From positions 480,001-544,000 of the forward strand of contig OZ242008.1 of assembly GCA_965204735.1 (NCBI GenBank): a stretch of DNA of 64,000 nt. Direction: 5' to 3'. Below are positions 1 through 15,195 of this stretch, in pieces. Position numbers and translations under genes: made by a program. The DNA comes from Longimicrobiales bacterium. GTDB lineage: Bacteria; Gemmatimonadota; Gemmatimonadetes; Longimicrobiales; Gaopeijiaceae. The first letter of the stretch is position 1. Each line of letters opens with the position of its first letter. Below the pieces are notes generated by a model that had not been told where the DNA came from, did not search any database, and worked only from the letters and a program-made list of their open reading frames with translations.

Positions 1-1
1 G

Positions 2-979
2 AGGCGGGGCAAGCTCTTCGGCATCGCCGGACTTCCCCGCCACGGCAAGACGACCCTGGCCGACCGCCTGCGGGAGCGCGCCGCCGATCGACCGGGGGCC
101 GACCTGCGCTACAACAAGACCGAGCGGGGCGACGTCAACATCTACTACCTGCCCGGCAGGCGGGACCACCACGTCCTGGTGGACATGGCGGGCGAGGACT
201 ACCAAGTGCTGGGGGACTACGAACGGGAGCTGCCCCAACTCATGGAGGCGTTCCTCTGGCCGGTCCTCCAGCGGCTGGACGGATTGGCGCTTCTCATGGC
301 GCTGCCCGTCGTCTGGTCGGGCTGGAACCGCGGCGACGATCCGCGCCGCCGGGCGCCCTCGTCCGACGAGCAAGAAGAGATGGCCGCGGCCGCGGAACGC
401 ATGGCGAACGCCCACAAGATGCTGCTGAAGTACGCGGTGGTGGCGCTGAAGTCGAAGGCGGCCCGCCCTCCCACCCGGGACCAGGTGGACGACGCCTTCA
501 AGCGGGCGCCCAAGTACGACCGACCGGTCGCAGTCGTGCTCTCCAAGGCCGACCTCTACACCGGCCGCGCGCGGGACCGCCTTCACACCCCCGACCTGCC
601 CCGGCTGGGCCACCGGACGCCCGTCGGGCTGCGGCCGGGCGTGTCGGAGCCCCTGCTGACGGCCGCCGCCCACTTCCCCGACTTCCTGGAGTTCCTGGAG
701 CGCCGAGTGCGGTGCTTCAAGTGGTCGTTCTGCCAGGCGCTGGAAGACCGAAGCCCCGAACCGGACCCCTTGGACGCGGCGGGCGACGCGGAACCGGGCA
801 CGAACACTCTGATCGGCGGCGACGGGGTGGTGGACTTCCTGGCCCGCCATCCGTGGCGGGCGCCCGGCCTGTCGTCGGCCATGGCGATCCGGCTGGACCG
901 GCGCATCAGGCGCGAAGCGTGGAGCCGACTCGGGCAAGAGCGGCGGTCGGCCCCGAATCCCGCCGGGCGCGAGGGCTGA
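2..979 (+). CDS. TRAFAC-like small GTPase domain protein (5'-partial)
   Basis: Frame 2 is open from the window edge. Motifs: G1 GLPRHGKTT (29-55), putative G2 Thr in NKTERG, G3 DMAGE, G4 SKAD. The ORF track start at 179 is internal. Confidence 0.75.
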   Translation, partial: RRGKLFGIAGLPRHGKTTLADRLRERAADRPGADLRYNKTERGDVNIYYLPGRRDHHVLVDMAGEDYQVLGDYERELPQLMEAFLWPVLQRLDGLALLMALPVVWSGWNRGDDPRRRAPSSDEQEEMAAAAERMANAHKMLLKYAVVALKSKAARPPTRDQVDDAFKRAPKYDRPVAVVLSKADLYTGRARDRLHTPDLPRLGHRTPVGLRPGVSEPLLTAAAHFPDFLEFLERRVRCFKWSFCQALEDRSPEPDPLDAAGDAEPGTNTLIGGDGVVDFLARHPWRAPGLSSAMAIRLDRRIRREAWSRLGQERRSAPNPAGREG

Positions 980-980
980 G

Positions 981-3008
981 GTGGGCTGGGCGACGGTCTT
1001 CGGCGTCGGCGCCCGCCGGGTGGCGCCGGACGGCCCGGCGCGGTGGGTTCTGCTCGGGACGTGCGTCGCCGTGGGCGCGGCCTGCGCTTGGATGGGCCGG
1101 TCGCTGCTCGGGTCGGCGCCGGCCGAGGACACGCTGGCCAGCGCGCACCGGTTCCTGGACCAGCCCCTGCGGCTGGGGCGAGCACTGGACGTGTCGTGGC
1201 GCTTCGCGGTGAGGGACGGCGGCGGGATGGCCGGGCGCGTGGACGACCTGCTCGCTCCGCCCCTGCCTCCCTTCCTGTGCTCGGCGAGGTGGCCCGGCGC
1301 GAGGGCCGACGAGGCCCGCGTGCTCGATCGGACGATCCGCCAAGCCCAGCAAGCCGCAGCGGCCGACAGTCGCGCCGGTCTCGCGAACGCGGTCGAGTCG
1401 CTCGAGAACCAAGTCGCAGCCGCGTCCGCCGCCGCCGAGCCCTTGGCTCTCTACGCCGTTGCGCGGGCAAGGGCCGCCGGCGGGGACTGGTCCGGCGCCG
1501 CCCGCGCGCTCGAGCTGGTCCCCCTCGTGCAGCGCGGAGGCGGGCCGCTGCCGGTGGTGCCTCGCTCCGCCGCCGCACAGGGCGTCGGGTCGGCGGGCGC
1601 GCCGCGCTCCCTGGCGGTTCTGGCCTTCCACGCGCGCTACCTGGCGGGCAGGGCGGCTCACGGCCGAGGCCGTCCGGAAGACGCGATCGGTCACTTCCGC
1701 CGCGCTCTCAACGCGGTCCGCTACGTCCTGGACGGCTCTCGCGGAGCCGGACCTGGAGGGCACTTCCGGCGAATCGAGATGCGGCCCGGGGTCCTCTCCT
1801 GCTCCGGCGCCGCGCAACCCGGCCTCACGTCGCTGGACGCCTACTCCGGGCTGGTGGCGGCCTACTTGGCGGCCCCGGAGTTCCGCGACCCGGAGGGCTT
1901 GGCCGGCGAAGTCGCCCGCCGTCGTCTGGAGATGGACCCGGGCGACCCGCTGGCGCCTCTGGTTCGGTACGCCCAGCAAGCGGCCGCCGACGCTCGGCCA
2001 GCCCAAGGCTCGATCCCCGAGAACGTCCTCTGGGCGGCGTCCAACTTGCAGCGGGTCTACCACTACAACCGACTGCGCCCGGACCCTCGGCTTGCCGCCG
2101 GCAGGGCCGTCCTGACTTGGCAGGTGCTCGACCGCCCGGAATGGACGCGGGCGCTGGAGCTGAACGCGCCGGCGCAGTGCGAGATGCTCGCCGGCGTGGC
2201 CGCCGGAGTGGGACGGGAGGGCGGGACCATCGGCGGTCCGGCGGGCTCGGCGGCAGCCGGCGACAGCGCCTGGGCGGCCGTGGCGGTCCACACCTTCGCC
2301 CGCCTGGAAGAGCGGTGTCCCGAGGGAGCGGACGAACCTGTGGCCGAATCGGTCCGAGAGCGATGGCTGGACAGATCGGGAGGGTTCATTCACGGGGGAG
2401 TGGTGGTCCGCTACGAGGCGCGGCGGCGAGAGCTGGAGGCCGGAGGGAGAGGCGTCGGGCTTTCGGGCGGAGCCGCGACGGGAGCGGGCGAGGTCCTGGA
2501 CGAGGCTCGAAGCCACGTTCGGACGTTCTGCCAGGGCGCGGTGCCGCCGGACCTGAGCGCAGGGATCGATCCCCGCGCGGCGTGCGAGTTCGTGTCGGCG
2601 TGGAGGCGGGCCGTCTTCCACGACGTGGCCGACCAGATGGTCCAGCAGGTGCGCGGCGGCGGCGTCCCCGCGGCCCGGGACGCGGCAGAGTACGTGCGGA
2701 CGGTGGAGGCCGCCGTCGCCCATGCGGGCCTTCGTCCGTCCGATGTGTACGGCGTCGAGGAAGTGGCCCCGCTGCTTCGGTCGCAGGGGGGCGTCCGCGC
2801 CTGGAGCGGAAGGCTGCGCCATGCCGCCCGGAACCGGCCCGCGACCGCCGTGGCGGCGCTGGCGTTGCTGGGCGTCGCCGGGGTCTCGCTGGCTGTGCTG
2901 GCCTTCGTGAGCTGGTGGCGGTTCTTCCTGCTGACGCGAACGGACTTCTACGCCGACGAGGCCGCCGAGCGGAGAGCCCGCGGGCACGCCCGGGAGCTGG
3001 GTCCGTGA
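981..3008 (+). CDS. Membrane-anchored helical-repeat (TPR-like) protein, 675 aa
   Basis: GTG 1 nt after the upstream stop. Hydrophobic segments at both termini. TPR-like helix pair HARYLAGRAAHGRGRPEDAIGHFRRAL. Confidence 0.65.
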   Translation: MGWATVFGVGARRVAPDGPARWVLLGTCVAVGAACAWMGRSLLGSAPAEDTLASAHRFLDQPLRLGRALDVSWRFAVRDGGGMAGRVDDLLAPPLPPFLCSARWPGARADEARVLDRTIRQAQQAAAADSRAGLANAVESLENQVAAASAAAEPLALYAVARARAAGGDWSGAARALELVPLVQRGGGPLPVVPRSAAAQGVGSAGAPRSLAVLAFHARYLAGRAAHGRGRPEDAIGHFRRALNAVRYVLDGSRGAGPGGHFRRIEMRPGVLSCSGAAQPGLTSLDAYSGLVAAYLAAPEFRDPEGLAGEVARRRLEMDPGDPLAPLVRYAQQAAADARPAQGSIPENVLWAASNLQRVYHYNRLRPDPRLAAGRAVLTWQVLDRPEWTRALELNAPAQCEMLAGVAAGVGREGGTIGGPAGSAAAGDSAWAAVAVHTFARLEERCPEGADEPVAESVRERWLDRSGGFIHGGVVVRYEARRRELEAGGRGVGLSGGAATGAGEVLDEARSHVRTFCQGAVPPDLSAGIDPRAACEFVSAWRRAVFHDVADQMVQQVRGGGVPAARDAAEYVRTVEAAVAHAGLRPSDVYGVEEVAPLLRSQGGVRAWSGRLRHAARNRPATAVAALALLGVAGVSLAVLAFVSWWRFFLLTRTDFYADEAAERRARGHARELGP

Positions 3009-6000
3009 CCGTCCTGGTTCTGGGGCTGGCGACGCTCCTCGGCGCGGGCTGGATGGCGCGCCGATCGACGCCCGGCCGCCGCTCGTGTCTTTGGGTCCTC
3101 GCCATCGGCGCCTTGACGGCGGGGCAGACGTGCTGGCAGCGCGACCGCTTGGCGTCGTACCAGGTGAGGCTGCTGGGCCAGCGCTTCCAGCCGGGGAGCG
3201 ATGGCTTGGTCGCCGAGGTGTCGGGCGACAGGGACCGGGCGGACTACTACCTGCCCGGCGCCGGGAACGATCCCGTGGCCGTCCTGCAGCTCGACTCGGC
3301 GGGCGGGGTCGCGGTGCGGGCGCCCGCGCCGACCTCGGCGGCAGCCGTCGCCGTGGTGACTACGCCTCGTCGCTGGAGGGGCGGAGATCGGGTCGTGCTG
3401 GGCTCCGTGCCCGTGGAGCCGGGAGATCGGATTTGGGTCGGCGGCGAGGGCGCGACCGAGGTGTTCACCTTCGCGCGGTCGAGGGTCTCCCTGCTCCAGA
3501 GGGCGAGGATCGGGGGGACGCGGGACCAGCTGGCGCTCGGAAGCGGCGACGCCGGGGACGCGGGGGGTCCAGCGGCGATCGTGCCCTACCCGGAAGGCGC
3601 CGGAGTCCTGGGGCTCCTGCCACGGCGCCCCGGCGTCTACCAACGCACCTATCCGCTGGCCGAGCTGGCGGCCGCAGGAGGATTCGACGGGCTGGGCGTG
3701 GCGGGCCTCCGCTCCTTTCTCTACTACCGCGAAGGCTCGGCTCGCTTGGCGGTCCTGGACGACCTGGTCGAGGTGCTCTCGCCCGACGGGACGGCCAAGA
3801 CGCCGGTCGAGAGCGCTTCCGCATGGCCGGGGAGCGGGCGAACGCCGGTGGTGACCGTGGCGGGCTTGCCGTACCGGGACTTCCCCGACCCGGGGCTCGC
3901 GGCCGGCGAGCGGTACGGGGCGAGGCCGCTCCGCAGCTTCCGCGCCCGAGTGGACGGAGAGTGGATCACGGTGCAGGGCGCGCGGGCGGAAGTGCACTCC
4001 GTCGAGACGGCCGGGCTGCCTCCCGCAACCCTCGCCCCCTCGGCCCTGGCGGGCGGGTCTGGAGGCGGTTCGATGCTTCACTTGGTCCGCCTGGCGGTCG
4101 GAGACGCGCCCGAAGGACCCGCGGGGCTGACCCTCGCATCCCCTGCCAACGTGTTCGCGGCGGCGGGAGAGGCGGTCCTGCGGCTTCCCCAAGCTCCGTC
4201 CGCCGGATGGTTCGAGCTCCTGTCCCCCTCGGGTCAAGCCCGCTGGGAGACCGGACGACCCTTCACCTTGAGCGACGGGGAGAAGGGGTTGCTGCTGCGG
4301 GTCGACGGGCTGGCCGCCTCCTGGTCGTTCCTGCTGCTGCTGACGCTGCTCTTCCTCTTGGCGGCGGCTCCGTTCGCGCTGGTCGAGACCACGGGCGTGG
4401 TGCGGGGCTTGGCCCTGGCCGCCCTGGGAATCGCCGCGCTCCGCGTGCTCCTCTCCCTCTCCGCCATGGCGCGCTACCCCTTCGTGGACGAAGGCCACCA
4501 GATCGGCCTCTGGCTGGTCCCGGCGCTGCCTTGGTTCGTGTGCGCTCTTGGACGCAAGCGCGGCGAGACGTGGGCTGCGGACGGGGCCGGGCTCGCCCCC
4601 GCCGCCCGCGCCCCCGCCATGGCGCCGCCCGGCGCGGGGCGTCGAGACGTTCGGCCTTCAGCCCCGTGGAGCGCGCGGGCCGACCTTGCCGCGGCAGCGC
4701 TCGGCGCGCCGCTGGTCTTCCTGGCGGCCGCCCTCTTCCCGACCACTCCCGCCAAGTCGCTTGTGCTCTCCGCCGCCGTCGTCTGCGCGGCGGTGGTCGC
4801 CCTGCTGCCCATGGAACGCACCTTGCTGGCCTTCGGGCGCAGCGCGGCCCGGCTGCGCCGCCTGGCCAAGGCGCTTCCCGCCCGGCTTCGGAAGACGGCC
4901 GCCAGCTGGCCGGGCGCGGTGGCGGGAGTGGCGATCGTGGCGGGCCGGGTCGTGCTGGACGCGGCGGGGTTCAGGGAGCAGATCGCCTTGGGCGGCACCC
5001 GAATCGGCCTTTCCGTGCTGCACACCCCGGTCGCCCTGATCGCCTTCGCCCTCCTGGCGTCGGCTCACCACCGGCGTGTCGCCCGTGCGGGACGTGGCCG
5101 GGTCGCCGGTGTGGGACGCGCTCGCGTCGCCCCGGCGGAAGACGGCCGCGCCACCCCCACGGAAGACGCCCGCGCCACCCCGACGGAAGACGCTCGCGTC
5201 GCCTCGGCGGAAGACGGCCGCGTCACGGAAGACGGTCTCGCCGCCCTGGCGGAAGACGCCCGCGCCACCCCCACGGAGCGCGCCGGTTGGGGCCGCACCG
5301 CCGGTCGCTCGCTGATCGACCTGTGCGCCTTCCTAGCCTTCGCCTATGTCGGCACAAGCGTGGCGGTCTCCGACTTCGGAGTCGCCTTCACCACCCTGCC
5401 GGGTCCCCTCGTCGTCCTTGCCCTGGTCGGTGCGTGGTGGGCAAGAGCGCGAGCCCAGGGCCGGGCCGACGGCGGCGGCAAGCGCACAGAGAGCATCCGC
5501 GCCGCCCCCGGCAGCTGGTGGCAGGCCAAGGGCGTCGACCGCAGGGCGGCTCTGCTGGCCGCGCTGCCGCTGATCTTGTTCGCGACGCTCCAGGCGGCCC
5601 CCGGCTTGCTCCGTCCCTTCTTGCCCGACACGGAGGGTCCCAGGTCCGGGCTGGAGGAGTGGAGCCGCAACGAGCTCCTGCTGCTGGAGCGGGGCGACCC
5701 CGACGCCCTGCGGCTCATCGGCGAGAGCCGGAGCGAGGCCCTGGCGGTGATGCGCGAGACGATGCGTTCCTACACCCGTGGCAACTGGTTGGGACAGGGG
5801 TTCCTGGAGGGCCGCGTGTCGTCGCAGATACGCACCACGGCGACCCGCGAGCACGTGGTCACCGGGTTGCTGGCCAGTCAGTGGGGAGCGCCTGGGACGC
5901 TCGGCCTTCTGGCCCTCCTGGCTGCGGTCCTTCGCCCGCTGGCGTCGGCGGCTCGTCCCTGGTCGAGCCGCGCCCACTTCGTCTCGGCGACGGCTCTTCT

Positions 6001-6220
6001 GACCTTCTCGACGGCCGGCGTCTACATGGTCTTCGCCAACTACGGCTGGGCCATGTTCACGGGCAAGAACGTCTACCTGCTGGGGCTCGACTCCCTGGGC
6101 GACACCCTTGAAGCCCTGGCCTTGCTGGGAGTGGCGGCGGCCGCGCTGGCCCGGCCGGAATCGGCGGACCGGAGTCCTCCCGGCGCCCCGCTTCTCCCAG
6201 CCCCCGGAGGCTCGGCATGA
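3005..6220 (+). CDS. Divergent SEDS (FtsW/RodA/SpoVE-like) protein with a large N-terminal soluble domain, ~1071 aa
   Basis: GTGA overlap with the upstream stop; many TM segments. SEDS-like motifs in order: SDFG, GNWLGQG, TREHV..SQWG, ANYG..FTGKN.YLLG. ATGA overlap with the PBP gene. Confidence 0.7.
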   Translation: MTVLVLGLATLLGAGWMARRSTPGRRSCLWVLAIGALTAGQTCWQRDRLASYQVRLLGQRFQPGSDGLVAEVSGDRDRADYYLPGAGNDPVAVLQLDSAGGVAVRAPAPTSAAAVAVVTTPRRWRGGDRVVLGSVPVEPGDRIWVGGEGATEVFTFARSRVSLLQRARIGGTRDQLALGSGDAGDAGGPAAIVPYPEGAGVLGLLPRRPGVYQRTYPLAELAAAGGFDGLGVAGLRSFLYYREGSARLAVLDDLVEVLSPDGTAKTPVESASAWPGSGRTPVVTVAGLPYRDFPDPGLAAGERYGARPLRSFRARVDGEWITVQGARAEVHSVETAGLPPATLAPSALAGGSGGGSMLHLVRLAVGDAPEGPAGLTLASPANVFAAAGEAVLRLPQAPSAGWFELLSPSGQARWETGRPFTLSDGEKGLLLRVDGLAASWSFLLLLTLLFLLAAAPFALVETTGVVRGLALAALGIAALRVLLSLSAMARYPFVDEGHQIGLWLVPALPWFVCALGRKRGETWAADGAGLAPAARAPAMAPPGAGRRDVRPSAPWSARADLAAAALGAPLVFLAAALFPTTPAKSLVLSAAVVCAAVVALLPMERTLLAFGRSAARLRRLAKALPARLRKTAASWPGAVAGVAIVAGRVVLDAAGFREQIALGGTRIGLSVLHTPVALIAFALLASAHHRRVARAGRGRVAGVGRARVAPAEDGRATPTEDARATPTEDARVASAEDGRVTEDGLAALAEDARATPTERAGWGRTAGRSLIDLCAFLAFAYVGTSVAVSDFGVAFTTLPGPLVVLALVGAWWARARAQGRADGGGKRTESIRAAPGSWWQAKGVDRRAALLAALPLILFATLQAAPGLLRPFLPDTEGPRSGLEEWSRNELLLLERGDPDALRLIGESRSEALAVMRETMRSYTRGNWLGQGFLEGRVSSQIRTTATREHVVTGLLASQWGAPGTLGLLALLAAVLRPLASAARPWSSRAHFVSATALLTFSTAGVYMVFANYGWAMFTGKNVYLLGLDSLGDTLEALALLGVAAAALARPESADRSPPGAPLLPAPGGSA
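5136..5277 (+). repeat. In-frame tandem repeat of mostly 24-bp units (EDxRATPT-like, 6 units)
   Basis: Anchor CGGAAGACG at 5136, 5160, 5184, 5208, 5226, 5250. Confidence 0.9.
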
Positions 6221-8814
6221 ACACACGAACCGCGACGGGGGTCGTCTCCGGCCTGTCCGTCTTGATCGTCGTCGCGTCCCTTCAGGAGGAGCCGGCCGGG
6301 TACTGGGCGCCGGAAGGCTTCGTGAGCCGGTCGGACGACATTGTGGCCAAGGGCGGGCTGGAGCTCATTTGCGGCGCGCGCGACTCAATCGTGGTCCGCT
6401 TGGAGCCGGACAGCCCCGACGAACGCTTCTTCCGGTCCAGCTACCTGCGGGCCGACGTGCGACGCTTCAACGCCGACCCTTCCGCCGCCCGCTCGCCGTT
6501 CCTGGTGGATGGTTGCCGCCTCTTGGGCGTGGACCCCTTCTACCATCGGGTCGACCTGCCCTACAACCGCGTTCCCCAGTGGACGGGACCCGTCCGCTTC
6601 GCCCAGGCCAGCCGAAGCGCCGCCTTCCGCGGCGGGCGGGACCAGCGCCTGCAGGTGGTCCATCCCCTGGAAAGCTTGGACGCAAGCACGAGCGAGCGGG
6701 TGGGGCTGGCTCGCCGACGGGCCTCTGCGCGCACCGAATTCCTTCGCTTCGAGGCGCCCCGCAGCCCGGAAGTGCTGGCGGAGGCGTACTTCGTGGGCGA
6801 CGAAGCGCCCGTGCTGGCGGACCGTCGGGACGTGGGCGCGCCCTCCATGCTGCGGCTGAACGGGTTCGCCGTGCCGCCGGGCCGGATCGCCCGGCTGGAG
6901 ACGGGGGACTGGGTCCAGCTGCAGCACCGGGAAGAAGTCTTCACCTACTTGGTGGACGGTTCGGACCGAGCCGGGCTGGTGTCGACGGCGTCGGCGGCGA
7001 ACGGGGGGACGCGACGGTACCTGGTCCCCCACCTGGCGCCTTTCGTGAGCGACTTGGCCCGGGCCCTGGAGGGCGGCCTCCACTCCACGCCCTCGGCCCG
7101 GGACGGCGGACCCGTCTCCCGCATGGAGGTACGCCTGGCCCTCGACCGGGAGCTGGAGACGACGACCCAGGCGCTGGTGGACGAGTGGTGCGAGCGGCAG
7201 CGCCTGCCCCGCCGTCCCCGAGCGGTTTCGGCGCTGGTCATGGACGCCTTTCGAGGAGACGTGCTGGCGATGCCCACCTGTCCCGGCGAGGCGGTCCTGG
7301 AAGACTACGGCCAGCTCTCGCGCCGCCTCCGGTCCCGCTACCTGCGCAACCAGAACCTGGTCCTGCACCCGGGCGGCTCGGCGCTGAAGCCGTTCTGGGC
7401 CGCCTCGATCGCCACGGCCTACCCCGGACTGCTGGACCTGGAGATTCCGGAGCACCCGCCCGGCGGCGTGGAGGACGTGTTCGGCTGCGCCTTGACCGTG
7501 CCCTACGGGTCCGGCGGACACGAGGGATGGGAAGGGTTGGAGGCGTTCCTGCGCACCTCGTGCAACCGCTACATGGTGGAGGCGGCCACGGCGGCGCTCC
7601 TGGCCGGCGCTGGGAGCCTGCCCGAGGGCTTGGCGCAAGGGTTGCCCGGACGGAACTCGCCCGGACGCGGCCCGCCCGGCCAGGGTTCGCCCGGACGCCT
7701 GCTCGCGGACGGCTCTCCCGCGCCCAGCGGCGCCAAGCGGGAAGTGCGCTTCTGCGACCAAGTGGTCGAAGTGGCGCTCGCCGACGGCCTGCCTTTCACC
7801 GGCGGTTCGTGCGAGGACCTTCGCCTTCTCGGCGAACGCTTCGCCCCCGGGCTTTCCTTCGAGCAGGTGACCGGCGCGGCCGTCTACCGCGATCGGGCGC
7901 CGGCCGCCGCTGCCGCCGGGGCCGAAGCCGCCAGCTTGGACGACGCCTACCGAGCGGGACGCTACCGGCTGGACCTCTGGCGCGGTCCCCTCGACGCCCT
8001 GCGGGTCGCCGGGGACACGGCGAACCCCGTGCACACGCGCCTGCGCTTCTCCGCCGTGTCGCCCCAGGTCACCAACTTGGCCCTCAACACCGTCGAGGAG
8101 CTGCGCCGGGACTGGGTGAACCTGCTCCTGGGCGGCGAGAACTCGCGCTGGAGCAACTTTCAGCTGGCCGAGGCCATGTCGCGCCTCATGACCGGCCGGG
8201 ACGTGCGGGGTCGGTTCGTCGTCTCTCCCACTGCGTGGGGAAGGGAGGCGGTCGGGTCCGCCGAGCCCCTGCCGGAAGACGCCCTGCACCCAGGCGCGCG
8301 CCGCCGGGTGCTCCACGCGATGGAACGGGTCGTTGGTCCCGGCGGCACCGCGGTCCGCCTTGCCCCGGCTGCGCGCCGTCTCGAGTCCGTGCTGCGCTCC
8401 GTGCCCGGCGCCGAGGACCACGACGTCTACGTCTTCGCCAAGACCGGAACGCCTGCCGTGTCCGTGCCCCTGCGAGACGGCCCCTTGACCCGGGAGGGGT
8501 CGGTGCTGGTCCTGGGCGTGCTCGTCGTGCCCCCGGAGGCGGGCCGCCGGGCCTCTCGCCGCCAGCCGGAGTGGATATCCGCGTGCCCGCTGGCGCCGGA
8601 CCTTCGGGCAGGCGTGCTGGGCGTGCCCCCTGTCGACTTCCTGGGCGACAGCTCTGGGCCGGGCGCCGCGCCGATGGGCTTCTCGGTCGCGTTCTTCCTG
8701 GACGACCTGGACCCTCGGGGCGGCGACGCGTCTGCGACGGAGCTGGCTGCCGACTTCCTGGAACCCTTGGCCAACTACGCCGCCCAGCGACTGGAACGGC
8801 AGCTTCGCAGGTAA
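6217..8814 (+). CDS. Penicillin-binding protein, transpeptidase domain (class B-like), 865 aa
   Basis: N-terminal TM. SxxK (SALK, 7378), SxN (SCN, 7558), KTG (KTGT, 8440). FHA-like strand motif LRLNG..LETGDWVQL before the catalytic domain. Confidence 0.85.
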   Translation: MNTRTATGVVSGLSVLIVVASLQEEPAGYWAPEGFVSRSDDIVAKGGLELICGARDSIVVRLEPDSPDERFFRSSYLRADVRRFNADPSAARSPFLVDGCRLLGVDPFYHRVDLPYNRVPQWTGPVRFAQASRSAAFRGGRDQRLQVVHPLESLDASTSERVGLARRRASARTEFLRFEAPRSPEVLAEAYFVGDEAPVLADRRDVGAPSMLRLNGFAVPPGRIARLETGDWVQLQHREEVFTYLVDGSDRAGLVSTASAANGGTRRYLVPHLAPFVSDLARALEGGLHSTPSARDGGPVSRMEVRLALDRELETTTQALVDEWCERQRLPRRPRAVSALVMDAFRGDVLAMPTCPGEAVLEDYGQLSRRLRSRYLRNQNLVLHPGGSALKPFWAASIATAYPGLLDLEIPEHPPGGVEDVFGCALTVPYGSGGHEGWEGLEAFLRTSCNRYMVEAATAALLAGAGSLPEGLAQGLPGRNSPGRGPPGQGSPGRLLADGSPAPSGAKREVRFCDQVVEVALADGLPFTGGSCEDLRLLGERFAPGLSFEQVTGAAVYRDRAPAAAAAGAEAASLDDAYRAGRYRLDLWRGPLDALRVAGDTANPVHTRLRFSAVSPQVTNLALNTVEELRRDWVNLLLGGENSRWSNFQLAEAMSRLMTGRDVRGRFVVSPTAWGREAVGSAEPLPEDALHPGARRRVLHAMERVVGPGGTAVRLAPAARRLESVLRSVPGAEDHDVYVFAKTGTPAVSVPLRDGPLTREGSVLVLGVLVVPPEAGRRASRRQPEWISACPLAPDLRAGVLGVPPVDFLGDSSGPGAAPMGFSVAFFLDDLDPRGGDASATELAADFLEPLANYAAQRLERQLRR

Positions 8815-8911: not shown

Positions 8912-9005
8912 CCTCTCGACGCTTCACCTTGTCGCCTGGAGCGCAAGCCGTTGCCCACGAGCGCAAGCACCGGCGCAAGCCAAGCGTCACTTCCCGGAGG
9001 ACCTC

Positions 9006-11051
9006 ATGCTCAACTTCCGCCCCGCCTTCCCCCTCGCCGCCGCCTCCGTCGCGGTCGCACTCGCCGCGTCCGTCTTCTCGTCGCCCGCCGCGGCCCAGGA
9101 CGAGCCCGACGGCGTTCTCAAGCTGGCGACCTACCTGGACTGGGAGTGGGTCGCGAACCCCCAGCTCTCCCCCGACGGCAGCCAAGTCCTCTACACGAAG
9201 TCGTGGGTGGACAAGATCAACGACCGTCGCGAGTCCTCGATCTACCTGATGAACGCCGACGGCACCCGGAAGCGCTTCCTGGTGGACGGCTCGTCGCCCA
9301 AGTGGTCTCCCTCCGGCGACCGGATCGCCTACACCGCTTCCGGCGAGCCCAGCGGCAGCCAGATCTTCGTGCGCTGGATGGACGACGAGGGCGCCGTCAC
9401 CCAAGTCACCCGCGTGACCAAGGGTCCCGGCAACGTCGAGTGGTCGCCCGACGGAACCCAGATTGCCTTCACCATGTCGGTGTCGTCGGACAACCCGTGG
9501 CCGATCTCGCTGCCCGGCCGGCCCGAGGGCGCCAAGTGGACCGAATCGCCCAAGGTCGTGGATCGCCTCCAGTACAGACGCGACCGGCGCGGGTACATAG
9601 ACGAGGGGTACACGCACCTCTTCGTCGTTCCGGCGGAAGGCGGGACCGCCCGGCAGCTCACCGACGGCGACTGGAACCACAACGGCGTCGCCTGGACCCC
9701 GGACGGCCGCGAGATCCTCTTCACCTCCTTGCGGGTGGAGGACGCGGAACACGAGTGGCGCCAGTCCGACATCTACTCGGTGACGGTGGCCACGGGCGAC
9801 ATTGCGCGGCTCACCGACCGCTCCGGTCCGGACGGCTCCCCCGTGCCTTCTCCCGACGGCCGGCTGATCGCCTACACCGGCAACGACCTCACCACCGACA
9901 CCTACATCACACGCAAGCTCTACGTGATGAACCGCGACGGCTCGGGCTCGCGCATGATCAGTCAGGGGTTCGACCGTCAGCCCAGCGGCCTGCTCTGGGC
10001 CGAGGACGGGAGCGGCTTGTACATGAACGTCAGGAACGAGGGGACGAGCAACGTCTGGTTCGCCTCGGTGGACGGCGGCGTCGAGCAGGTGACCGAGGGC
10101 AATCACATGCTGTCGGCGTCGTCGATCGAGGGCGACATGGCGGTGGGCACGCTCTCGGCCTACCACAAGCCCGGCGACGTGGTCGCGTTCTCGTTGCGCA
10201 GCCCGGGCGACATGACCCAGCTCACCGACGTGAACGCCGACGTGCTGGCGGGCGTCTCGCTGGGCGAAGTCGAGGAGGTGTGGTACAAGTCCGTCGAGGA
10301 CTACGACATCCAGGGTTGGATCATCAAGCCGCCGGACTTCGATCCGTCGCGCAAGTACCCCATGATCCTGGCGATCCACGGCGGACCCCACGGCATGTAC
10401 AACGTGGGCTTCAACTTCGGCTGGCAGAACCACGCCGCCAACGGCTACGTCGTGCTCTACACCAACCCCCGGGGCTCGTCGGGCTACGGCAGCGCCTTCG
10501 GCAACTCGATCAAGAACGCCTACCCCGGCAAGGACTTCGACGACCTGATGGCGGGCGTGGACTTGGTGATCGAGCAGGGCTACGTGGACGAGGACAACCT
10601 GTTTGTGTACGGGTGTTCCGGCGGGGGCGTGCTCACGTCGTGGGTGGTGGGCCACACGGACCGCTTCGCCGCCGCGTCGGCCAACTGTCCCGTCACCAAC
10701 TGGCTGTCGTTCGTGGGCACCACCGACGGCGCGAGCTGGTACCGCAACTTCGAGAAGTTCCCCTGGGACGACCCGTCGGAGCACCTGCGCCGCTCGCCCC
10801 TCATGTACGTGGGCAACGTGACCACGCCCACCATGCTCATGACGGGCGAAGGCGACCTGCGCACGCCCATGCCCCAGACCGAGGAGTACTACCAGGCGCT
10901 GCGGGTGCTCAAGGTCCCCACGGCCATGGTGCGCTTCAAGAACGAGTGGCACGGCACCAGCTCCACGCCGTCCAACTTCCTGCGGACCCAGATATACCTG
11001 CGCGAGTGGTTCCAGAAGCACGGCCGGGGAGGGTCGGTCACGGAGGAGTAG
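9006..11051 (+). CDS. S9 family peptidase (acylaminoacyl/dipeptidyl aminopeptidase-like) with signal peptide
   Basis: GGAGG RBS then ATG at 9006. WSPDG beta-propeller repeats, HGGPH, nucleophile GCSGGG, catalytic D (GEGDLR) and H (EWHG). Confidence 0.95.
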   Translation: MLNFRPAFPLAAASVAVALAASVFSSPAAAQDEPDGVLKLATYLDWEWVANPQLSPDGSQVLYTKSWVDKINDRRESSIYLMNADGTRKRFLVDGSSPKWSPSGDRIAYTASGEPSGSQIFVRWMDDEGAVTQVTRVTKGPGNVEWSPDGTQIAFTMSVSSDNPWPISLPGRPEGAKWTESPKVVDRLQYRRDRRGYIDEGYTHLFVVPAEGGTARQLTDGDWNHNGVAWTPDGREILFTSLRVEDAEHEWRQSDIYSVTVATGDIARLTDRSGPDGSPVPSPDGRLIAYTGNDLTTDTYITRKLYVMNRDGSGSRMISQGFDRQPSGLLWAEDGSGLYMNVRNEGTSNVWFASVDGGVEQVTEGNHMLSASSIEGDMAVGTLSAYHKPGDVVAFSLRSPGDMTQLTDVNADVLAGVSLGEVEEVWYKSVEDYDIQGWIIKPPDFDPSRKYPMILAIHGGPHGMYNVGFNFGWQNHAANGYVVLYTNPRGSSGYGSAFGNSIKNAYPGKDFDDLMAGVDLVIEQGYVDEDNLFVYGCSGGGVLTSWVVGHTDRFAAASANCPVTNWLSFVGTTDGASWYRNFEKFPWDDPSEHLRRSPLMYVGNVTTPTMLMTGEGDLRTPMPQTEEYYQALRVLKVPTAMVRFKNEWHGTSSTPSNFLRTQIYLREWFQKHGRGGSVTEE

Positions 11052-11250: not shown

Positions 11251-13488
11251 CTACGCCGAACCGAAGAGGTCGGCGGCGTAGTCGTCCTTGTCCAGGAACT
11301 CGCTCCGACGTCCGTAGCTGAGCACCAGCAGCTCCTTCTTGGCGCGGGTGGCGGCCACGTACACCAGGGCGCGCTCGCCCGTTTCCGCCGACTCGCGGGC
11401 CGCGTCGTCGCCGGTCTCGCGGAGCGCTGCGGAGAGCGGCACCAAGCGACGGTTGACGCTGGCGATCAGCACGCGGTCGAACTCCAATCCCTTCACGCGG
11501 TGCATCGTCGCCAAGCGGACGCAATCGTCGTGTTCGTGGTCCGGGTTGGCGTGTTCCAAGACATGGACTTCCACGTCCCTGTCCCGTAGTCCGTCGGCCA
11601 GTGCGTCGCGCTCGCTCCGCGTCCTGGTGACGACGCACGCGCCGCGCAGCGGCTCGTCGCGCTGCGACATCTTGTCCAGGTACTGGGCGATCCAGTTCGC
11701 TTGCTCGCTCCGGCTGCCGAAGTGGCGCAAGCGCGGTTCGGGGCCGTGTGTGAGGGACTTGAAGTCGCGGTTGTCGTCCCGGCCGCCGTCCAGGTCGTCG
11801 ATCTCGCGGTCTTCCAGCAGTCCGACGGCCCAGGCGCGGGTCTCCTCGGTGGTGCGGTAGCCCAGCCGCAACTTGCGCGACCGGCCTCGGATGTTGATGC
11901 CGCACCGTCCCAGCACGACATTGCTCCGCCCGTAGATGCGCTGGTGCCCGTCGCCCACCACGAACAGGTCGTCCTTGCCCTCGGGGACGATGTTGCGGAT
12001 CAGCTTGAATGCGGGCGCGCCCAGGTCCTGGGCCTCGTCGACGATCACGGAGGCGTAGTCCGCGCCTGGAGTGTTCCGTTCGCGCTGGAGGAGCGCGGCC
12101 GCGTCGCGGTAGGCGTCGTCCACTTCCTTGATCCTGCGCTCCGCCAGCTGCGCCCGGTACTCCGCGAAGACGGGCCAAACCTTGGCCCTGGCGTTGCGGC
12201 CGAGCCGTGTGCCCCGGCCGGCGCGGAAGACGCGCAAGTACTCGTCTTCGGTCTCGATTCCGTGGGCCTGCACGACGTGCTGCCACTCCTCTGCGTAGAA
12301 GGCGTCGGCGTACTCCAAGGCGGGGTCCCGAAGGGTCATGGCGTGGTCCCACGCGGCCCGTGCGTGCTCGTCCCGGTCCTTGTCGTAGGCGATCTGGAAA
12401 TCGTACCCCTGGCGGCGCAGGAACCCGACGACCCACCGGTCCAGGTTGGTCACCTCGATCCGCTCCATCGCCTCGGGCGAGCAGATCGAGCGCAAGTTGT
12501 TCTCGATGTCGGCGGCCAAGTTGCGGGTGAAGGTGACAAAGAGAATGCGCCTGCGCGCACCGTCCGTTCGGGTCCCGCCGTTGTCGCTGTCGCAGTCCGG
12601 GTCCGCCATCTGCCGAGCCAGCCAGCGCGCCCGGTGCATGGCCACGACCGTCTTGCCGGTGCCTGCGCCGCCCAGCACGCGAACGGGACCGTTCCAGCGT
12701 CGCTCCACCAGCCTGCGTTGCGATGGATGCAAGAAGACTCGCCACCGCTCCAAAGGCGCGTTGAGCACTTGCTGGAGAGCCGCCTCGTCGTCCGCCACGA
12801 CGAATCGAGCACGCGATTCGTCCCGGCCCAAGGCCGTCTCGAAGTCGTCGGTGTCGACCGTTTTGCTGGGAGCCTCGCGTTCGAGGATCAGCTCCTCGTA
12901 GGAGTCGCCGGCCAGAAAGTAGAAGAGCGATTCGTAGGCGTCGTTCGGCAGGCGTTCCTGCATCGCTTCGAGGTCTGCGTCGTCGCGGACCGTTCGGACT
13001 TCCTCGAGCATTGCCTGCGGAACTCCCAAGCGCACAAGTTGGCGGTCCTTGAGCTGGTCGAAGGCGGACGGGTCCGACGGGGTCGCCGCCGCGCTGGGTG
13101 ATGCGGCCGAGCTCTGGCCGGAGTTGGCGGGCTGTGACGCGAAGACCTGCACGGTGCCGGTTTCGGGGTTGACGGCGCAATCCTTGCGCATGGCCCAGGC
13201 GTACGCGTCGTCGTGCTTGGCCGCCCAGAGAAGAAGGTGGAGCCCGCCCTGCCCGGTGTCGTAGACGATCGCGCGGTAGGCTTGGTCGAGCCGCACCGAG
13301 CGCATCTTCGGGCTCCGCGCATTGCGGATGCGTTCGTAATTCAGCCCGGGCGCCGTGGGGTTCTCCCTCAGCTTGTGAATAAGTCTGTCGACCCGTTGCT
13401 GCTGTGCTCTCGGCAACTTTGCGAAGGCGCCGAAGAAGCTGTCCGAGATTGCGAGCTTGTAGTGTCCCCTCGCGACGCGTCCCCTCAC
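11251..13488 (-). CDS. UvrD-like SF1 helicase with N-terminal RelE/ParE-like domain
   Basis: GTG at 13488 overlaps the upstream TGA. GGAGTGKT, VDEAQD, GDGHQRIY, HRVKGLEF, YVAATRA. N-terminus ISDSF...SVRLDQAYRAIV resembles RelE-fold nucleases. Confidence 0.88.
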   Translation of the reverse strand: MRGRVARGHYKLAISDSFFGAFAKLPRAQQQRVDRLIHKLRENPTAPGLNYERIRNARSPKMRSVRLDQAYRAIVYDTGQGGLHLLLWAAKHDDAYAWAMRKDCAVNPETGTVQVFASQPANSGQSSAASPSAAATPSDPSAFDQLKDRQLVRLGVPQAMLEEVRTVRDDADLEAMQERLPNDAYESLFYFLAGDSYEELILEREAPSKTVDTDDFETALGRDESRARFVVADDEAALQQVLNAPLERWRVFLHPSQRRLVERRWNGPVRVLGGAGTGKTVVAMHRARWLARQMADPDCDSDNGGTRTDGARRRILFVTFTRNLAADIENNLRSICSPEAMERIEVTNLDRWVVGFLRRQGYDFQIAYDKDRDEHARAAWDHAMTLRDPALEYADAFYAEEWQHVVQAHGIETEDEYLRVFRAGRGTRLGRNARAKVWPVFAEYRAQLAERRIKEVDDAYRDAAALLQRERNTPGADYASVIVDEAQDLGAPAFKLIRNIVPEGKDDLFVVGDGHQRIYGRSNVVLGRCGINIRGRSRKLRLGYRTTEETRAWAVGLLEDREIDDLDGGRDDNRDFKSLTHGPEPRLRHFGSRSEQANWIAQYLDKMSQRDEPLRGACVVTRTRSERDALADGLRDRDVEVHVLEHANPDHEHDDCVRLATMHRVKGLEFDRVLIASVNRRLVPLSAALRETGDDAARESAETGERALVYVAATRAKKELLVLSYGRRSEFLDKDDYAADLFGSA

Positions 13489-15182
13489 GACTCGTTCCCC
13501 GGCGGATTGAGCGTCTTTCCGATGACGTCCAGCTTCTGGATCACCTCTGGATGAATCTCCTCGGGCGTCATGGCGGCGGCCAGCAGGAAGAGATCGCGCT
13601 TGGGAGTCGGTGCGCCGACCTCCTCCAGCAACGGCACCAGAAACTCGTTGCTTGCCTTGACCCGCGACAGCGCCGGATGGTCGCCGAAGTAGTCGGTGCC
13701 GACGGGAATCTGTCTGTCGAAGGCGTTCCGCACAAGCTTCCGGTGCAGAGGAAGGCCGACGAAGCGCCCGACGCTCTCCGGCTGGAGCAGGTAGTTCTCG
13801 ATCTCGTAGCGTCGCCAGCGGAGCACCTTCATGCCGGCCCTGGTCGTCTCGGCGTCCGGCTTGTTCTTGTTGTCGCCGTCCAGAAGGCACGCCGCCCGGA
13901 TATGCGGAAACGCCGCCCGCAAAGCGAAGAAGTGGTTCTTGGCGTCCCTGATGCTGCTGCCCGCCAAGTGGTGGACGAAGGGGCGCGCAAGGAAGCGGCG
14001 GGAGGGATGCTCCAAGGTGTCCGCCCACTCCTTCAAGATGCGTTCGTCCGACTCGTTCTCGACGTAGAGGACGGCCCCGACCTCCTGTCCCAGCAGCAGA
14101 TCGGTGGTCGTCAGTCGCTTGAGGGCCTCGCGAAGCTGGTCGCTTTCGGTGGGCGTCGTCAGCGCGCGATACTGGTCGCCGTAGAAGCTGAGCACTCGTT
14201 CTGGAGCCGTGGCGTCCAGGACGACTTCGGAGTGAGTGGCCAGGACGACTTGCCCGCCGCGCTCGCGAGCCACCTTGCGGAGCAGGCCGTACACTTGTTT
14301 CTGCAGGACGATGTGCTGGTGCGCATCGGGTTCGTCGAGCAGGATCACCGACGCCGGGCGCGCATGGAGAAACGCCAGCAGAAGGACGACCTGGAGGGTG
14401 CCGCTGCCGGCGTTGGCCAAGTCCAGGGGGCGACCCGCTACCTTCGGCTCGTCGTATTCGCACAAGATGTAGGGCTGGGCCGGCGAGTAGACCGGCTTCC
14501 GGATGACGATCCCGAACAGGTCGCGGACGTGTCCGACCAGGGCGTCCCAATCGCCGTTCTCCTTTTGGGCCGCTTCCAGCAAGAGGTTGCGCAAGATGCC
14601 GCCGGCCTGCCCCTGTCCTACAAGCAGGTCCTGCATCCCTTTGTCCAAGCGGGGCTCGTCCCGCTGCACGCCGACCAGCGGCGGGACGTGCACGACCTCC
14701 AGGTCGGCGGCTTGATGCGGCGGAAAGTCGCGAATGCTCTCGCGGTCGAGCTTCTTTGCGCCCCGGGGCCGCACGTACACCATCTCCGGGTTCGCGTACT
14801 GGAACTCCAGGCCGCACTCCCAGGGGGCCTCCCCGCCCCCTTCCAGCACGATCTCGATCAGCCTGGGCGTGCCCGGCGGCCTTCCTTTCTTGGTTGTCCG
14901 CGTGACTCGGCGGTCGCGCCAAAGCAGGTTCATCTCCCGAAGCGGCGTCGCCGTCAGCTCGCCCCGCGTGATCGAGACGCCGGACCGCTTGACCGCGCTG
15001 CTGGCGCTGCCCGCCCCACGCCGGACGGCCCAGCGGTCCATGCCCATCTTCCATGTCGCAATCGCCTGAAGCAGGGTGGACTTCCCGGCGTTGTTGGGTC
15101 CCGCCAGCACCACCGAGTCGGCAAGCTCGAACGTCTGCTCTTCGAAGCGCTTGAAGTTGCGGACCGTGACGCGACGGATCAT
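13485..15182 (-). CDS. ABC-type ATPase fused to TOPRIM domain (OLD-like ATP-dependent nuclease)
   Basis: GPNNAGKS, signature-like AGSG, LLDEPDAH, H-loop ATHS. TOPRIM acidic motifs YVENESD and LLDGD, plus YEIENYL. RBS GAGAGG before ATG 15182. Confidence 0.82.
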   Translation of the reverse strand: MIRRVTVRNFKRFEEQTFELADSVVLAGPNNAGKSTLLQAIATWKMGMDRWAVRRGAGSASSAVKRSGVSITRGELTATPLREMNLLWRDRRVTRTTKKGRPPGTPRLIEIVLEGGGEAPWECGLEFQYANPEMVYVRPRGAKKLDRESIRDFPPHQAADLEVVHVPPLVGVQRDEPRLDKGMQDLLVGQGQAGGILRNLLLEAAQKENGDWDALVGHVRDLFGIVIRKPVYSPAQPYILCEYDEPKVAGRPLDLANAGSGTLQVVLLLAFLHARPASVILLDEPDAHQHIVLQKQVYGLLRKVARERGGQVVLATHSEVVLDATAPERVLSFYGDQYRALTTPTESDQLREALKRLTTTDLLLGQEVGAVLYVENESDERILKEWADTLEHPSRRFLARPFVHHLAGSSIRDAKNHFFALRAAFPHIRAACLLDGDNKNKPDAETTRAGMKVLRWRRYEIENYLLQPESVGRFVGLPLHRKLVRNAFDRQIPVGTDYFGDHPALSRVKASNEFLVPLLEEVGAPTPKRDLFLLAAAMTPEEIHPEVIQKLDVIGKTLNPPGNES

Positions 15183-15195
15183 CGTGGCGCGCCTC

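Follow-up and report, generated by a model that had tools for sequence, protein, structure and literature searches.

The window analysed here, a 64,000-nucleotide stretch from a Longimicrobiales bacterium (contig OZ242008.1, positions 480,001 to 544,000), opens inside an operon in which a GTPase and its putative partner genes precede a predicted pair of wall-synthase proteins: a divergent SEDS-fold protein and a divergent class B-type penicillin-binding protein (PBP). The operon comprises seven genes, g1 to g7, over 12.5 kb, and its first three genes lie wholly upstream of the window (Table 1). A reading made from the sequence alone had described four tightly coupled genes at positions 2-979, 981-3008, 3005-6220 and 6217-8814. 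Open reading frame (ORF) calls agree with all four placements and the genes are indeed coupled, but the operon has seven genes and the GTPase is longer than it appeared, since its ORF is 5'-open in the window and its true start lies 389 bases before the window edge.

Each of g1, g2 and g3 is joined to the next gene by a 4-base overlap, and the junctions inside the window read as had been noted: a 1-nt gap between g4 and g5 (TGA-G-GTG), and GTGA and ATGA overlaps at g5/g6 and g6/g7. Likewise, none of the mre, mur or fts genes is found beside the operon. All seven genes are under purifying selection (dN/dS of 0.21-0.55 against the nearest fetched locus, L003), gene order is preserved in the Gemmatimonadota loci, and all 30 bins of the stretch are covered by contigs of three public runs, which come from two studies, with two indels, of 3 and 24 bases, listed against them. 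The operon is therefore a real conserved unit and not a series of chance ORFs.

Table 1. Genes and sites of the operon. Plain positions are those of the window; C1 positions are those of the contig in genome G000.
Feature	Position	Strand or location	Description and basis
Marker for g1-g3	1..1	+	three genes before the window edge, on G000 contig C1
g1	C1:476357-476908	upstream of window	183 aa; ORF call
g2	C1:476905-477525 (= L002:6905-7525)	upstream of window	206 aa; ORF call
g3	C1:477522-479615	upstream of window	697 aa, putatively GAP1-like; ORF call
g4	1..979 (C1:479612-480979)	+	predicted DO-GTPase-type P-loop GTPase, 455 aa
g5	981..3008	+	helical TPR-like protein, 675 aa
g6	3005..6220	+	predicted divergent SEDS-fold protein, 1071 aa
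g6 residues 48-438	3146..4318	+	beta-rich region with putative FHA-like fold; VIA-align 4g2s_A Z 7.7, 4a4y_A 6.7, 3kt9_A 6.7, 3poa_A 6.5, all under Z 8 and taken as leads only
g6 Glu949	5849..5851	+	aligned with the catalytic Asp of FtsW/RodA (RodA D262, FtsW D297); alignment column
g7	6217..8814	+	predicted divergent class B-type PBP, 865 aa

The divergent SEDS-PBP pair

The product of g7 consists of an N-terminal anchor, a beta-rich insert (about residues 126-247) and a transpeptidase domain, with no GT51 domain. The three PBP catalytic motifs that had been claimed for it were found in the sequence, as S388xxK391 (7378-7389), S448CN450 (7558-7566) and K742TG (8440-8448). Its structure model (pLDDT 83) matches PBP3 in Foldseek at E 1.7e-10 and reaches up to Z 29.5 over 393 residues in VIA-align, with identities of 9-20% to solved PBPs and lactamases; by anchor, modelled fold and motifs, g7 is predicted to be a class B PBP. 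Against clusters at 50% identity, a g7 profile retrieved 725 at E 0.001 or better and 519 at 1e-10 or better; the best 150 were listed, and the weak tail may include ordinary PBPs. PF00905 was matched at E 0.01 or better, among the matches listed, by 30 of the 48 relatives scanned. In an alignment of 151 family sequences, counting the rows that have the residue, SxxK retains its Ser in 136/136 and its Lys in 135/136, SxN its Ser in 137/137 and its Asn in 133/137, and KTG its Lys in 144/147. Because these residues are nearly invariant, the alignment argues for g7 being a working serine acyl-enzyme; its dN/dS against L003 is 0.21. The beta-rich insert looks FHA-like, and the relative P0211 has a Pfam FHA match just before its transpeptidase domain. 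In one locus (L010:10001-12499) the PBP gene is broken over three frames, as an assembly error or a broken copy.

For g6, as for g7, there was no useful match in Pfam or NCBIfam, and sequence searches of the PDB were null or weak. Its AlphaFold model (pLDDT 78, pTM 0.81) gave as the top three VIA-align matches among 48,161 chains RodA 8tj3_B (Z 17.4), RodA 6pl5_A (Z 16.3) and FtsW 8bh1_A (Z 16.0), and only Z 8.6 with WaaL. The SEDS match spans residues 458-1056, and the top RodA match has 299 aligned residues at a root-mean-square deviation of 3.9. Foldseek with the whole of g6 returned no match at E 0.001, with RodA/FtsW chains at probabilities of 0.77-0.97. On the modelled structure, g6 has the SEDS membrane fold, so that the SEDS-like identity first proposed from sequence survived the structural comparison. 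The unusual length attributed to the protein also stands, and it is accounted for mostly by a beta-rich, FHA-like region of ~390 aa together with extra helices. This region (residues 48-438) probably faces the periplasm, as judged from the order of helices in the model and the charge bias.

The placement of Glu949 comes from a sequence alignment that has an insertion of one residue downstream of it. The column into which it falls holds Glu in 26 and Asp in 17 of the 43 family rows, being thus acidic in 43/43, and Asp in 11/11 canonical rows. Residues D790, G792, G930, G932, G961, N1012, G1020, N1022 and D1033 are invariant in 43/43 SEDS-family rows, and g6 keeps among them the equivalents of D159 (D790) and G371 (G1020). 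R480 is likewise invariant (23/23) and may stand in for RodA R48. In all, the alignment suggests that the SEDS site of the g6 clade is remodelled, yet conserved in its own way. The adjacent His950 was considered as a WaaL-type catalytic His and rejected, as His occurs in only 19/43 rows, Asp/Glu949 aligns with the SEDS Asp and the structural match to WaaL is low. At about 5130-5280 of the window, a loop of g6 contains short imperfect repeats (EDGRATPTEDARATP...), with one more 24-base unit in other strains.

Canonical FtsI/FtsW (C1:1.391-1.399 Mb) and PBP2/RodA (C1:2.581-2.584 Mb) are encoded elsewhere in the same genome, which settles the question, raised with the first description, of whether both pairs exist apart from the operon; housekeeping FtsW, FtsI, RodA and PBP2 are also present in 5/5 other hosts checked. 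Instead of clustering with the housekeeping RodA and PBP2, the g6 and g7 families form clades of their own, apart from both FtsW-FtsI and RodA-PBP2, with SH-aLRT of 100 in both trees, and the SEDS and PBP trees recover the same subgroups. Both are quick trees in which long branches meet and the deep order is unsure, and in the PBP tree the domain start is mis-anchored for L137 and L051. When rooted on class A PBPs, the PBP tree places the family next to kinase/phosphatase/FHA-linked fusions (SH-aLRT 96). Phylogenetically, then, g6 and g7 appear as an accessory pair and not as orthologues of RodA-PBP2 or FtsW-FtsI.

A very divergent class B PBP that has a SEDS partner of its own, in a genome whose housekeeping pairs are intact, could also be a back-up synthase that works under beta-lactam or other wall stress, with the GTPase module as a stress switch. 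Yet neither a lactamase nor a known regulator of resistance was noticed among the loci that were read, and the structure ranks do not single out low-affinity PBPs; we consider this explanation quite improbable.

Predicted switch genes and their linkage to the pair

The G1, G3 and G4 motifs previously recognised in the GTPase are all present in g4 (GLPRHGKT at 29-52, DMAGE at 182-196 and SKAD at 542-553), together with a G2 Thr (Thr170) and a low-complexity N-terminus. The motif residues are invariant in 12 orthologues, and G1, the G2 Thr, DxxGE and SKxD were also followed in the wider family alignment. While g4 itself has no Pfam family match, DO-GTPase1/2 included, GTPases of related loci do: that of L051 matches DO-GTPase1 and that of L135 DO-GTPase2 above the cut-off, and those of L046, L049, L055, L134 and L136 match DO-GTPase1/2 below it. 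The best ESM Atlas match of g3 is a GAP1-N2 cluster (0.92, 174 shared features), and counterparts of g3 match GAP1-M (E 0.011, L013) and GAP1-N2 (E 4e-4, L055 and L057) below the Pfam cut-off; there is thus moderate support for g3 being a GAP1-like protein with a GAP1-N domain. The initial guess that the GTPase is of a kind found in conflict systems gains from both sets of matches.

Complex prediction for g3 (residues 12-420) with g4 (112-440) scored 0.54 against 0.00 for the best control, with a partner pLDDT of at least 78 and runs that agree in at least 0% of contacts. The mark used was reached by 116/157 solved complexes and 2/215 mismatches, scores at or below 0.60 comprising only 18/157 of the former and both of the latter, so the predicted complex lends weak support to binding of g3 to g4. 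No membrane helix is predicted in g3; in each of L017 and L136, a GAP1-like protein is itself a fusion that includes a membrane helix as well as an outer domain.

The remaining partner genes encode putative membrane proteins. From its alignment, g1 has a single membrane helix and, at its C-terminus, a small conserved domain that is LysM-like by eye only, its hhalign score to LysM being 18.5 against a shuffled maximum of 20.6; g1 also heads the operons of L135 and L136. In an alignment of nine orthologues, g2 has a helical N-terminus, one likely membrane helix (hydropathy 1.45, with 1.45-2.35 in relatives) and a low-complexity tail. The C-terminal domain of g2 relatives scored 15.2 against PG_binding_1, above the shuffled maximum of 11.8 but with a probability of 1.3%, and neither this domain nor g1 had a Pfam or PDB match. 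This domain, of ~125 aa with a DG...PC...C motif, is absent from g2 of the window's genome, L003 and L004 and present in six other orthologues. Homology of the g2 outer domain with the outer domains of Acidobacteriota GAP1 fusions was considered and not supported, leaving an analogy of architecture only. Finally, g5 has two membrane helices by hydropathy (weak at the N-terminus, strong at the C-terminus), a TPR_2 match at E 0.003, counterparts with TPR matches in L055 and L134, and Atlas matches under 0.9; its large domain is likely periplasmic, because it has conserved cysteines.

We examined 39 loci, of which three kinase-linked ones (L141-L143) were set aside before counting; among the 36 left, four end too close to judge, and 32 are informative. 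A GTPase is encoded in the same cluster in 24 of these 32, and these linked loci span the three main branches of the PBP tree; the linkage on which the sequence-only reading depended thus recurs. Among the 24, a scored GAP1-like gene is present in 22 and a TPR gene between the GTPase and the SEDS gene in 20, and six have two GTPases; the profiles behind these scores were built partly from the same loci and are to that extent circular, the GTPase assignments resting also on motifs and Pfam. In 35/36 family loci the SEDS gene either immediately precedes the PBP gene or is fused to it; the one remaining locus begins at a contig end. Natural SEDS-PBP fusions occur in L017, L046, L051, L140, P0187, P0211 and P0224, the last of which passes the PF01098 cut-off.

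The position of the GTPase gene varies, being upstream of the pair in L002, L046, L051 and L135 and downstream in L017 and L049. The Acidobacteriota loci L135 and L136 have a fuller form, with g1, a zinc-ribbon GTPase, two GAP1-like genes, a second GTPase, a TPR gene, SEDS and PBP, of which the operon in the window is probably a reduced version. In the PBP tree, the GTPase-less loci are nested among the linked ones, a pattern that fits an old linkage with losses and that repeated gain could also produce. Each module does occur without the other, both here and in passages of PMC7159879, as would be expected if switch genes and enzyme pair were co-inherited neighbours with separate functions; against such independence, stop and start codons overlap or abut across all seven genes and the linkage is kept under different gene orders, so that we see this as very improbable.

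The family is patchily spread within genera and families. Any match was found in 15/401 Gemmatimonadota genomes, five of them close (including G000), and the eight of ten weak Gemmatimonadota matches that were inspected were all family members; in Acidobacteriota, 10/301 genomes matched below E 1e-40. A metagenome scan returned 79 loci, mostly short matches resembling ordinary PBPs, and the four full-length ones (L054-L057) were analysed. Other arrangements were seen as well: in L137-L139 (Acidobacteriota) a stand-alone pair precedes the genes of two further proteins, a conserved membrane protein of ~697 aa and one of ~410 aa, and in L053 (5496-18744) five coupled genes come after the pair, among them genes for proteins with weak resemblance to SpoIIE and to MotA/ExbB, and no GTPase was recognised. 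A Gemmatimonadota-type operon in L015, whose record is titled Wenzhouxiangella sp., reflects transfer or mis-binning.

This distribution bears on the possibility that the pair is a developmental or shape synthase for a special wall, such as that of a bud, junction, stalk or resting stage, with the GTPase marking a site and not damage. Extra SEDS-class B PBP pairs serve special walls, for example SpoVE-SpoVD (in passages of PMC12516126), GAP1-N2 systems are enriched in multicellular bacteria (in those of PMC7159879), and the family adjoins the kinase/phosphatase/FHA-linked fusions in the rooted PBP tree. The patchy spread and the changing flanks point to an accessory element more readily than to a step at the core of development, and we rate the developmental role as rather unlikely.

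Directly after the operon (about 8997-11051, + strand), the window encodes beta-propeller repeats with a GxSxGG motif, S9 peptidase-like by eye, and among 13 loci this neighbour is common only to the window and L003. Next, on the minus strand (11251-22092), come three genes in a row, which encode a UvrD-type helicase, an OLD/AriA-like ATPase and a DruE-like helicase of 2298 aa. They border a region of lower GC content (22-52 kb), and only L003 also has these three genes after its operon. In a PADLOC scan at 1e-10 of 48 of the 52 downstream genes in these 13 loci, leaving out four L003 genes that match the window's own flank, eight of the 48 matched, several of them generic enzymes, and no background control was included, so that the count does not speak for or against a link to defence islands.

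A possible role in wall repair

Directly supported are the seven coupled genes, the folds as modelled, the conserved active-site motifs, the separation from the housekeeping pairs and the repeated linkage. From these we infer, with a probability of about 45%, that the operon encodes a spare, GTP-gated peptidoglycan synthase for local wall repair, a proposal that covers how g6 and g7 would form a complex and act as catalysts, how the signal would cross the membrane and what would trigger it. The two proteins would form a complex, as natural fusions suggest, in which g7 would acylate and cross-link stem peptides and g6 would polymerise lipid II with Glu949 as the base. The g4 GTPase would cycle GTP with g3 as its partner, and two membrane proteins, g2 and g5, would connect the switch to the synthase. 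Contact in the periplasm would be made by the g5 TPR domain and by the FHA-like parts of g6 and g7, with g1 as a wall anchor. The TPR protein could act as an activator, by analogy to Lpo/CpoB-type proteins. Upon envelope damage or invasion, the trigger proposed for DO-GTPase systems, the GTP-bound g4-g3 complex would turn the synthase on or place it at the damage site, leading to a local patch or thickening of the wall, independently of the machines that serve normal growth and division. The path from switch to synthase and the trigger are the weakest steps of this proposal.

Several findings weigh against a gated synthase for repair. To begin with, the SEDS site has lost residues on which characterised enzymes depend: the loop Trp (FtsW W138, RodA W102) is Gln659 in g6 and the QPxE loop is lost, RodA R210 is replaced by Leu892 (with Arg in 23/34 family rows), P257 by Thr944, and SYGG by GLDS. 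Passages of PMC8765783 report W138, Q147, Y379, G380 and G381 as needed in FtsW, and passages of PMC10449877 report W102, R210 and P257 as needed in RodA. Because of these losses, polymerase activity is not assured for the g6 clade; for the copy in the window, we would put predicted polymerase activity somewhat above even odds. Further, 8/32 informative loci have a SEDS-PBP pair with no recognisable GTPase, and a GTPase profile at E 1e-6 found nothing in ten genomes, eight of them with GTPase-less loci, a search that had no positive control and included several fragmented assemblies. Because of both results, the synthase does not seem always to need the switch. Moreover, 12 of the 24 linked loci belong to one clade and are hence not independent, and none of the seven operon proteins (0/7) matched PADLOC 2.0 at E 0.001, leaving a defence role without direct support. 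As for the third wall-building module gated by a GTPase that had been suggested at the outset, the accessory pair, the linkage and the kinship with DO-GTPase/GAP1 systems bear it out in part, whereas its gating and purpose are conjectural and have the GTPase-less loci and the lost SEDS residues against them.

The same replacements would suit a signal that runs inwards. Lipid II, stem peptides or beta-lactams would then be bound by the SEDS-PBP pair, acting as a sensor or modifier, the SEDS protein would not polymerise what it binds, and the GTPase and GAP1-like protein would be the output. Large outer FHA-like and TPR regions are suited to sensing, and section 29 of PMC7159879, among the passages covered, reads the wall-binding domains of GAP1-N2 systems as contacting the wall or ligands. 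Nevertheless, the catalytic column is acidic in every family row, the three PBP motifs are intact, and stand-alone pairs with no GTPase would have no output; inward signalling seems unlikely to us, if deserving of some weight. A further possibility is that the pair consists of inactive decoy wall enzymes acting as dominant-negative effectors, as passages of PMC7159879 propose for borrowed modules. The effectors described there are typically in inactive form, and dead FtsW alleles are dominant-negative in passages of PMC8765783, but the near-invariant PBP motifs, the invariant acidic SEDS position and the low dN/dS of g7 make decoys a long shot.

The repair proposal can be taken further: a third family of peptidoglycan synthases, hidden but widespread (up to 725 clusters) and with a remodelled Asp/Glu site, would be the output of a GTPase switch and would build a local wall patch when needed, against damage or an invader. 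This fullest version we hold to be doubtful; if true, it would represent a conflict system in which the effector is a builder and not a destroyer.

Relation to known systems

On sequence grounds, the module appears to be a DO-GTPase/GAP1 system, of the 'GTPase-centric' kind described by Kaur, Burroughs, Iyer and Aravind in 2020 (PMC7159879), that carries a wall synthase. Compared with the passages covered of that work, it shares with the GAP1-N2 type a TRAFAC-type GTPase with a Glu after the Walker B motif, an adjacent GAP1-like gene, membrane components and a patchy spread, and its relatives L134-L136 also share the paired GTPases and N-terminal zinc ribbons. Unlike in those systems, the variable part is here a SEDS-PBP pair, the GAP1 gene is upstream of the GTPase gene, and the GTPase is single and has no zinc ribbon. 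The third core component described there is an FNIII-repeat protein in the N2 type or a GASH protein in the N1 type, neither of which had a Pfam match in the seven operon proteins or the scanned neighbours; because this component was not found, we regard the module as a variant and not as a standard member. The main text of PMC7159879 makes no mention of SEDS, RodA, FtsW, transpeptidase or penicillin, and two of its supplements make none of SEDS or PBPs; Figure 1-source data 1, outside that scope, may list such loci.

The pair resembles RodA-PBP2 and FtsW-FtsI in both predicted folds, in its adjacent or fused genes, and in the PBP motifs, the DxG and GxG motifs and the acidic catalytic position. 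It differs from them in its separate clades, in lying below Pfam detection, in having Glu for the catalytic Asp and replacements at W, QPxE, R210, P257 and SYGG, in its about 390 extra FHA-like beta residues and in its lack of mre/fts/mur context. Non-canonical and chimeric SEDS-class B PBP proteins, in passages of PMC12516126, likewise include large SEDS proteins with outward beta-rich regions and SEDS-transpeptidase fusions alongside intact housekeeping pairs. Unlike the g6-g7 family, which mostly fails InterPro domains, those fusions were found by them, and the main text of PMC12516126, as far as covered, had no match for GTPase, FHA or Gemmatimonad. Known SEDS-class B PBP synthases take their direction from FtsZ or MreB machines, or else are found together with kinases (partly from passages of PMC12516126).

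The Acidobacteriota loci L141-L143 combine, in a single cluster, FHA, phosphatase-like and kinase-like genes with the gene of a SEDS-PBP fusion whose motifs are near-canonical. We take them to be kinase/phosphatase/FHA-linked SEDS-PBP modules of the actinobacterial rodA-pbpA type. As in the g6-g7 family, an accessory synthase is there wired to a signalling module, and such modules form the nearest outside branch in the PBP tree; they differ in keeping near-canonical TD and SYG motifs, strong Pfam matches and kinase-like genes, where the g6-g7 family has a GTPase and GAP1.

No description of a SEDS-PBP pair combined with DO-GTPase/GAP1 was found in the literature covered, most subscription journals being outside that coverage. 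Both halves of the operon are of known kinds, and it is their union that appears to be new. As the g6-g7 family is large and largely below Pfam detection, per-genome counts of wall synthases miss it, and its natural Asp-to-Glu and loop substitutions offer a ready test of the proposed SEDS mechanism. A pair wired to a DO-GTPase/GAP1 module would provide the predicted GTPase systems with an effector open to direct assay, and wall synthesis would have a further, novel mode of control beside the FtsZ, MreB and kinase-linked arrangements of known synthases.

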